A stretch of 5,181 nucleotides of DNA, from the IMG/VR virus record IMGVR_UViG_2529292728_000029. One strand, 5' to 3'. The DNA comes from a virus (taxonomy: Duplodnaviria; Heunggongvirae; Uroviricota; Caudoviricetes). Positions 2,301-2,858 of this stretch are shown here, in pieces (position 1 is the first letter of the stretch; each line of letters starts with the position of its first letter). Both the position numbers and the translations under genes were made by a program. The notes beneath the pieces are model-generated. The model was not told the origin of the DNA and ran no database searches. It saw only the letters and a list, made by a program, of their open reading frames with translations.

Positions 2301-2858
2301 CTAATCTGGATCAACAATAAGTTGTGAAACCTTCGCTGCAAGTCTTATATAGCGTTCAGCTTCATTTCTGGTGATTTCAAAATCCAGAAAGTGCGCGGCT
2401 TCATTTCTTAGCGAGCGAAGCCGTTTTAACAGCAAAGCAGCGGAATCTTCAAGTTTTCCTTCTTGAATCAACCAGTCAATGAATAGTTCTGGATTCCGTT
2501 TCGGCTTTAACCCTCCCTGTATAAAACCAGAGCGCCCGGCAGCCTCCTCTACCATCAACCATGACTCCATAATAGCAGCTCTAGGTGAAAAATCAGCAAT
2601 TCTCTCTAATTGTGCGATTTTATTTATATATTCAGAGTTATTATTACCATTGTTAATATTTCTATTCCCAACTGATGCATCTGTTGCTAATACTTCTGCT
2701 GCGGTTAGTCCCGCATTAAACTCAGCTTCAGCTACTCCAATCTTGAATCTACTCAGACGTACTATTAACTCCTTAATATCAACCCCATACTTATTAACAA
2801 ACCACACAAACACCAATGGCCATGCAAGAGCTGAAACCAAATCTGTAAATGATGACAT
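2301..2858 (-). CDS. membrane-anchored protein with C-terminal HEPN-like domain (Rx4H motif RNEAAH); predicted RNase-type toxin/abortive-infection effector, 185 aa
   Basis: ATG at 2856-2858; stop TAG at 2301-2303. Residues 7-21 (LVSALAWPLVFVWFV, nt ~2796-2840) form a hydrophobic helix followed by a K/R-rich stretch (positive-inside, so C-terminus cytoplasmic). Asn-rich low-complexity linker (GNRNINNGNNNS, nt ~2634-2669). Near the C-terminus R151-N-E-A-A-H156 (nt 2391-2408) matches the HEPN Rx4-6H signature with the usual polar residue after Arg. Gene is AT-rich. Confidence 0.8.
   Translation of the reverse strand: MSSFTDLVSALAWPLVFVWFVNKYGVDIKELIVRLSRFKIGVAEAEFNAGLTAAEVLATDASVGNRNINNGNNNSEYINKIAQLERIADFSPRAAIMESWLMVEEAAGRSGFIQGGLKPKRNPELFIDWLIQEGKLEDSAALLLKRLRSLRNEAAHFLDFEITRNEAERYIRLAAKVSQLIVDPD

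Follow-up and report, generated by a model that had tools for sequence, protein, structure and literature searches.

orf24 of a D6-type phage-plasmid encodes a small membrane-anchored HEPN protein of a large family and is a candidate single-gene defence effector

Sequence comparisons confirm orf24, an optional cargo gene of D6-type phage-plasmids, as genuine; it codes for a small inner-membrane HEPN protein, a member of the large family in which a transmembrane helix bearing a Trp-Pro pair (WP-TM) is joined to a HEPN domain of the DUF4145 type. The gene, the fold of its product, the conservation of the HEPN motif and of the transmembrane helix, the status of orf24 as cargo and its defence-type neighbourhoods are established here; as to function, the protein is probably, if only by a small measure, a single-gene abortive-infection or superinfection-exclusion effector acting as a membrane RNase, a reading in which the topology, the RNase activity, the defence role and the trigger are what we infer.

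Across 98% of the window (the whole stretch of DNA analysed, 5,181 nt) the sequence shares 97.5% identity with positions 23351–28459 of Escherichia phage D6 (NC_050154.1), a P1-like plasmid prophage; with the Salmonella plasmid pYU39_89 the identity is about 98.5%. Every substantial ORF of the window lies on the minus strand; past prt and beyond the window edge, the D6 annotation places pro as the next gene. The features of the window are:

4809–5135, minus strand: 3′ end of darA (D6 annotation)
4441–4809, minus strand: ddrA (D6 annotation)
about 2968–4358, minus strand: ddrB (D6 annotation)
2859–2967, minus strand: intergenic region upstream of orf24, containing a single weak sigma-70-like site (2949 to 2922, ATCACA-16-CATAAT; scan, 9/12 matches)
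2301–2858, minus strand: orf24 coding sequence, 185 aa, D6 gp103, WP_000094097-like (ORF list, D6 identity, PHROG 18019, homologues)
1924–2256, minus strand: orf23, encoding a signal-peptide-bearing secreted protein of 110 aa, co-inserted unrelated cargo (PHROG 13843)
1893–3002, no strand assigned: AT-rich cargo cassette of 1,110 bp (3′ end of ddrB, orf24, orf23) between ddrB and prt (plasmid comparison)
156–1839, minus strand: portal gene prt (D6 annotation)

The orf24 frame begins with an ATG, its product has 99.5% amino acid identity with the D6 protein, for which the RefSeq name is “DUF4145 domain-containing protein”, and it is matched by PHROG 18019 at E=1.5e-128.

Some features of the surrounding genes deserve mention in their own right. 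Compared with both D6 and pYU39_89, the window contains single-base homopolymer indels (an extra T in the T-run at 1514 and one A missing after each of 3012 and 4192) that split prt into two ORFs (156–1544 and 1456–1839) and frameshift ddrB (2968–4029 plus a fragment at 4173–4358), while orf24 and orf23 are intact; the indels point either to mistakes in sequencing or assembly or to decay of the prophage. In darA (5082–5117, minus strand) the TGGTTG repeat coding for the DarA (PQ)n tract differs in length, with 36 nt fewer in the window than in pYU39_89 and about 22 nt more than in D6. The ddrB of D6 type encodes about 454 aa, as against 995 aa in P1 (L016, 15889–18876), and contains a ddrB-ParB domain (PF18763, E=2.8e-23). 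Finally, D6 and P1 differ in how their dar, prt and pro genes are ordered, and in P1 prt diverges from darB.

From hydropathy, conservation and structure prediction the orf24 protein can be divided as follows:

2796–2840, minus strand: predicted transmembrane helix, residues 7–21 (LVSALAWPLVFVWFV), with invariant W13-P14 (hydropathy and conservation)
2679–2795, minus strand: juxtamembrane stalk, residues 22–60, with conserved K39, E44, F47 and L51 (AlphaFold2 helix, gapless alignment)
2640–2678, minus strand: N-rich, variable, low-confidence linker, residues 61–73 (low pLDDT, gaps)
2313–2639, minus strand: HEPN (DUF4145-type) helical domain, residues 74–182
2547–2588, minus strand: conserved first-helix block S91-P-R-A-A-x-x-E98-x-W100-x-x-x-E104 (151-sequence alignment)
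2391–2408, minus strand: HEPN catalytic-type motif R151-N-E-A-A-H156 (conservation; aligns with RNKYAH of HepS, PDB 9oij)

The original prediction, drawn from the letters of the DNA, described a 185-aa product with a hydrophobic segment at residues 7–21 followed by a K/R-rich stretch, and this description holds: the segment has a mean Kyte-Doolittle value of 2.21 (15-aa window) and five K/R residues occur in the next 20. The best 19-residue hydropathy window scores 1.63 in orf24, the median for the family being 2.06; in the family about six to nine residues stand ahead of the hydrophobic segment and about five K/R after it. The run of uncharged residues that surrounds WP is short, with a mode of 15, which counts against a membrane span. 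Two members of the family, P0111 and P0217, instead open with a sequence resembling a signal peptide, and their WP helix is preceded by a Cys-containing extension of some 70–80 aa that could be an added extracytoplasmic sensor domain. This layout, together with the positive-inside bias, is consistent with an N-out, C-in topology and a cytoplasmic HEPN domain. The hydropathy thus points to orf24 being a single-pass inner-membrane protein, with the short N-terminus predicted to be periplasmic and the HEPN domain predicted to be cytoplasmic.

The anchor itself is under constraint. In an alignment of 151 homologues with a mutual identity of at most 50%, the mean frequency of the top residue is 0.50 in the transmembrane helix, 0.48 in the stalk, 0.43 in the HEPN domain and 0.16 in the linker, where gaps amount to 29%. 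Since helix and stalk align without gaps and slightly surpass the HEPN domain in conservation, the N-terminal module looks functional, beyond serving as a tether.

As for the HEPN domain, the original prediction had singled out RNEAAH at residues 151–156 (nt 2391–2408) as a match to the Rx4-6H motif, with the proviso that a single Rx4H match can occur by chance. The proviso was well placed: in composition-preserving shuffles of orf24 an Rx4H arises in 7% and an Rx4-6H in 19% of cases, so that a lone match proves nothing by itself. The homologues provide what a single sequence lacks. A word-seeded search returned 103 homologues, nearly all of 180–200 aa and full length, mainly from Enterobacterales but extending to Cloacimonetes and Methylocystis, while an exhaustive profile search returned at least 7,400 representative clusters (50% identity) at E≤0.001, 664 of them at E≤1e-30; the best 150 of these 7,400 matches are nearly all 180–210 aa long and align end-to-end, and four reach 257–285 aa by virtue of N-terminal extensions. 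W13, P14 and R151 are invariant (151/151), H156 is found in 149/151, N152 in 141/151 and A154 in 137/151 sequences, whereas in the first helix E104 is conserved in 150/151 (99%), W100 in 148/151 (98%) and E98 in 142/151 (94%), with S91, P92 and R93 at 90%, 94% and 90%, respectively. The conservation of R151, N152 and H156 makes R-N-x-A-A-H a family-wide motif and not a chance match, and the proposed check on R151 and H156 in homologues is thereby answered in favour of the prediction. H156 is also the sole histidine of orf24, which contains no cysteine. The near-repeat of the motif start that the prediction had noticed (TRNEAER, residues 163–169, nt 2352–2372) is indeed present, but the second RNEA is incidental and does not represent a duplicated motif, because R164 is kept in only 13/151 sequences and N165 is not the usual residue at its position.

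The assignment to the HEPN superfamily, also anticipated, gains its strength from the family. Taken alone, orf24 scores 19.9 bits (E=8e-4) with Pfam DUF4145 (PF13643), whose gathering score is 23.1, and the match to HEPN_RiboL-PSP (E=0.011) is likewise sub-threshold. Among 44 homologues, on the other hand, 36 match DUF4145 at E≤0.01 (best 4.4e-7), and the other recurrent Pfam matches in these members are all to HEPN families (Swt1-like in 16, RiboL-PSP in 6 and HepT-like in 1); a precomputed PF13643 match exists for most of the 103 homologues. The AlphaFold2 model built from the family alignment (mean pLDDT 83.8, pTM 0.71) consists of a single continuous helix (residues 2–60), a disordered linker (61–73, with pLDDT <50 for residues 67–72) and five helices within residues 74–182, the R151–H156 motif being located at the end of the penultimate helix. 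With the full-length model Foldseek gave weak matches, among which 2hsb still ranks first, and a sequence profile search of the PDB retrieved HepS alone (E=0.2), aligned on the RNxxAH helix. The all-alpha helical-bundle fold and an Rx4-6H motif with a polar residue after the Arg are the features that define the superfamily (Pfam clan CL0291), and orf24 has both; the superfamily is further characterised by metal-independent RNase activity at a composite site in a dimer.

On one point the original prediction does not hold, namely the novelty of a membrane-tethered HEPN domain, which it could match to no named system. DUF4145 was listed among the HEPN families by Anantharaman, Makarova, Burroughs, Koonin & Aravind (2013, Biol Direct 8:15; PMC3710099), who defined computationally a WP-TM + DUF4145 HEPN family, exemplified by gi 153825856 of Vibrio cholerae, reported that the WP-TM module is also fused to receiver domains and proposed that the family carries out stimulus-dependent RNA degradation (PMC3710099). 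The single N-terminal transmembrane helix (by hydropathy) and the strict WP within it are both found in orf24, and a comparison by description reveals no structural difference. Since the 2013 description fits orf24 feature for feature, the architecture is not new; what is new beyond it are the phage-plasmid, satellite and defence-island contexts of the family. A literature search found no experimental study of this subgroup.

The position of orf24 in the phage-plasmid might suggest that it serves D6 itself. The gene is flanked by ddrB and prt in the same orientation and follows lydA-lydB-hdf-darA-ddrA-ddrB, and no terminator-like site was found within 1800–3100, so that its read-through late transcription is plausible. 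As to a promoter of its own, the sigma-70 scan yielded sites no more frequently than in shuffled sequences and none that is convincing, and a P1-type late-promoter motif built from P1 LPpro and LPlyz had no convincing match either in the window or across 23 kb of D6. Being placed amid same-strand late genes without terminator or convincing promoter, orf24 may be made mainly in lytic growth; late expression would require of D6 a means to avoid self-harm. It could thus be imagined that orf24 is a late membrane RNase or regulator of the lytic cycle that degrades host RNA, tunes lysis or aids the Dar or head proteins, but the comparative data render this decidedly unlikely. The 1,110-bp cassette stands where the D6-like plasmids of the same replicon type (L017, L018, L019; the sister plasmids compared are E. 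coli pPSS-10_3 and plasmids of E. fergusonii and Shigella dysenteriae) have a 51-bp spacer, ddrB running almost straight into prt. In P1 the region is differently arranged and contains no orf24 equivalent; D6 is the only carrier among 50,697 phage records, and homologues occur in non-phage islands, in satellites and in an integron-like array. The GC content is 36–41% in the cassette and 46–53% in its flanks, and among 5,426 complete E. coli genomes the gene is rare, being present in 20, with nine copies on D6-like plasmids and eleven chromosomal.

The absence of the cassette from the sister plasmids and from P1, its low GC and its rarity imply that orf24 is dispensable for the phage and horizontally acquired. 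Sequence comparison accordingly places it as optional cargo of D6-type phage-plasmids, outside the virion and the Dar antirestriction machinery, and marks the ddrB–prt junction as a cargo insertion site of D6-like elements. The possibility that orf24 is part of the Dar or head module was rejected on the same grounds, the sister plasmids and P1 being without the gene.

The second gene of the cassette appears to be a fellow traveller. Homologues of orf23 (108, with no Pfam match) form a widespread proteobacterial family; in Pseudomonas prophages its members stand alone directly after a CI/S24-type repressor, and in Serratia prophages they lie amid the tail genes. A role of orf23 as partner or antitoxin of orf24 was considered and rejected, its homologues being solitary in prophages and the gene being missing at every other TM-HEPN locus; from this absence it follows that the cassette consists of two unrelated cargo genes and is not a two-gene system. 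By its sequence, orf23 looks like an independent cargo gene of the lysogenic-conversion or exclusion type.

The homologues have varied neighbourhoods. In K. pneumoniae and Raoultella a 55%-identical homologue occupies the cargo slot after a D5-type primase in an integrase-AlpA satellite, where, in K. pneumoniae, the TM-HEPN gene ends at its own terminator. The Cronobacter homologue is found among a TIR protein (PDC-S35), AbiTii, a resolvase and ApeA, that of Yersinia at a prophage end, after a tail-fibre assembly gene and near putAbiC, and in an integrative element of Salmonella and E. coli the homologue adjoins the integrase at the thrW end. Two other distant homologues have uninformative surroundings, and some distant homologues lie among housekeeping genes. 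What recurs is a solitary gene that occupies variable slots of mobile elements, frequently beside known defence genes. The observation that no MNT-type gene lies next door was borne out, the neighbours of orf24 being ddrB, with its ddrB-ParB domain, and the secreted 110-aa protein without Pfam match; the adjacent minimal nucleotidyltransferase that distinguishes HEPN-MNT toxin-antitoxin systems is thus missing beside orf24, and no MNT gene occurs in any homologue locus examined.

These loci have further peculiarities. The K. pneumoniae satellite (L025) sits inside a prophage protease/capsid gene and encodes at 2390–3739 (minus strand) a full-length PD-T7-1 (E=3.6e-156), there being two separate cargo slots; a 64-aa gene downstream in the satellites was considered as a transmembrane partner and rejected, having no hydrophobic segment and being separated from the TM-HEPN gene by the terminator. 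In the thrW island a 468-aa protein encoded convergently with the TM-HEPN homologue (L003, 8660–10066, minus strand; L035, 7447–8853) contains RNWASAAH, an Rx6H pattern, without significant Pfam or PADLOC match, and may be a second unrecognised HEPN-like protein. A distant TM-HEPN homologue (L034, 5436–10520) belongs to a run of nine small same-strand ORFs preceded by a tyrosine recombinase and an IS91-type transposase, a layout that resembles an integron cassette array.

The same neighbourhoods bear on the 2013 proposal, according to which orf24 would be a membrane signalling RNase tuning RNA stability to a cell-surface stimulus, unlinked to phage (PMC3710099). To this the fusions of WP-TM with receiver domains and the distant homologues among housekeeping genes lend some weight; nevertheless the close homologues are patchily distributed and on mobile elements, unlike a housekeeping regulator, and the extracytoplasmic part amounts to about six residues in most members, so that we assign the proposal a slim chance in the case of orf24. 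A HEPN RNase directed against plasmids or other mobile elements, which would clear or exclude rival plasmids and keep the niche of D6, is highly improbable. Its precedent is Ishtar, a DUF4145-containing protein that causes loss of plasmid RP4, and D6 is itself a plasmid competing with other replicons; however, in Ishtar the HEPN domain is N-terminal, the C-terminal domain is unrelated and a transmembrane helix is lacking, and most of the homologue contexts are phage-related (satellites, prophage ends).

A number of characterised HEPN proteins invite comparison with orf24. RAZR (PD-T7-4) is an abortive-infection RNase combining a zinc finger with a DUF4145 HEPN domain, in which R146A and H154A abolish defence (Nature 2026, PMC13017515); it is cytosolic and senses phage portal or Gp77 rings via its N-terminal Cys4 zinc finger (PMC13017515). 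This finger has no counterpart in orf24, which, being devoid of cysteine, has a transmembrane helix and a stalk instead. BxaP is a further DUF4145-containing defence protein. HepS of Gifsy-1 and Tha of S. aureus phages are single HEPN proteins by which prophages protect the lysogen, but they are cytosolic, sense tail proteins, have other N-terminal regions and show no significant overall similarity to orf24. A PICI-borne system named HEPN-TM is reportedly listed as two genes, HEPN and TM. The likeness lies in the combination of HEPN and TM as satellite cargo, orf24 holding both in one protein. Two papers cite this system, from Fillol-Salom et al. (2022, Cell 185:3248), as validated against phages, and the paper on helper-embedded PICIs does not discuss an orf24-type gene. 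No PADLOC family matches orf24 (E≤1) and none convincingly matches its homologues.

The same layout is found in Csx28, the accessory protein of type VI-B2 CRISPR systems, which acts in phage defence and resembles orf24 in being a small protein with an N-terminal transmembrane helix and a cytoplasmic four-helix HEPN-like domain. Csx28 forms an octameric pore, is Cas13b-dependent and has a divergent HEPN motif whose R and H are needed structurally, and it shows no RNase role. By this analogy the conserved R and H do not prove catalysis in orf24, and the main rival explanation is that an oligomer of the HEPN fold forms a depolarising membrane pore with R and H in interfaces or salt bridges. The shared layout, the similar size and the strong conservation of the transmembrane helix and stalk are in keeping with such a pore. 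Yet the orf24 motif is a canonical R-N-x-x-x-H with an almost invariant Asn and is accompanied by conserved first-helix acidic residues; moreover, orf24 has no sequence or structure match to Csx28 in the PDB and, unlike Csx28, is not CRISPR-associated, no Cas13b or other CRISPR gene being present near any homologue examined. We therefore consider the pore unlikely.

If orf24 is the membrane RNase effector that we favour, its mode of action could be the following. In the resting state the protein would be inactive in the inner membrane, until a membrane-proximal infection cue (candidates being phage DNA or proteins as they enter, damage to the envelope or a lost membrane potential) alters the N-terminal module made up of WP helix and stalk. 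The altered module would pair the HEPN domains face to face in an active arrangement whose composite site would cleave RNA (tRNA, rRNA or mRNA) and halt translation. An extension of this scheme to the entire WP-TM/HEPN family, as a stand-alone membrane surveillance in which WP helix and stalk sense entry or envelope perturbation and switch on the cytoplasmic HEPN RNase, is possible but doubtful; were it true, the sensing mode would be distinct from that of the cytosolic RAZR, HepS and Tha, which recognise phage structural proteins.

Being small, encoded by a single gene and endowed with clear mutational targets (W13, P14, R151 and H156), orf24 offers an easy system for the coupling of a membrane signal to an RNase, and it is a plausible candidate for the catalogues of defence genes, being absent from PADLOC 2.0. 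If orf24 does defend, a very large TM-HEPN family (7,400 clusters at 50% identity) would gain a function, and D6-type phage-plasmids, common elements of Salmonella and E. coli, would add to their hosts a layer of immunity against phages or other mobile elements.
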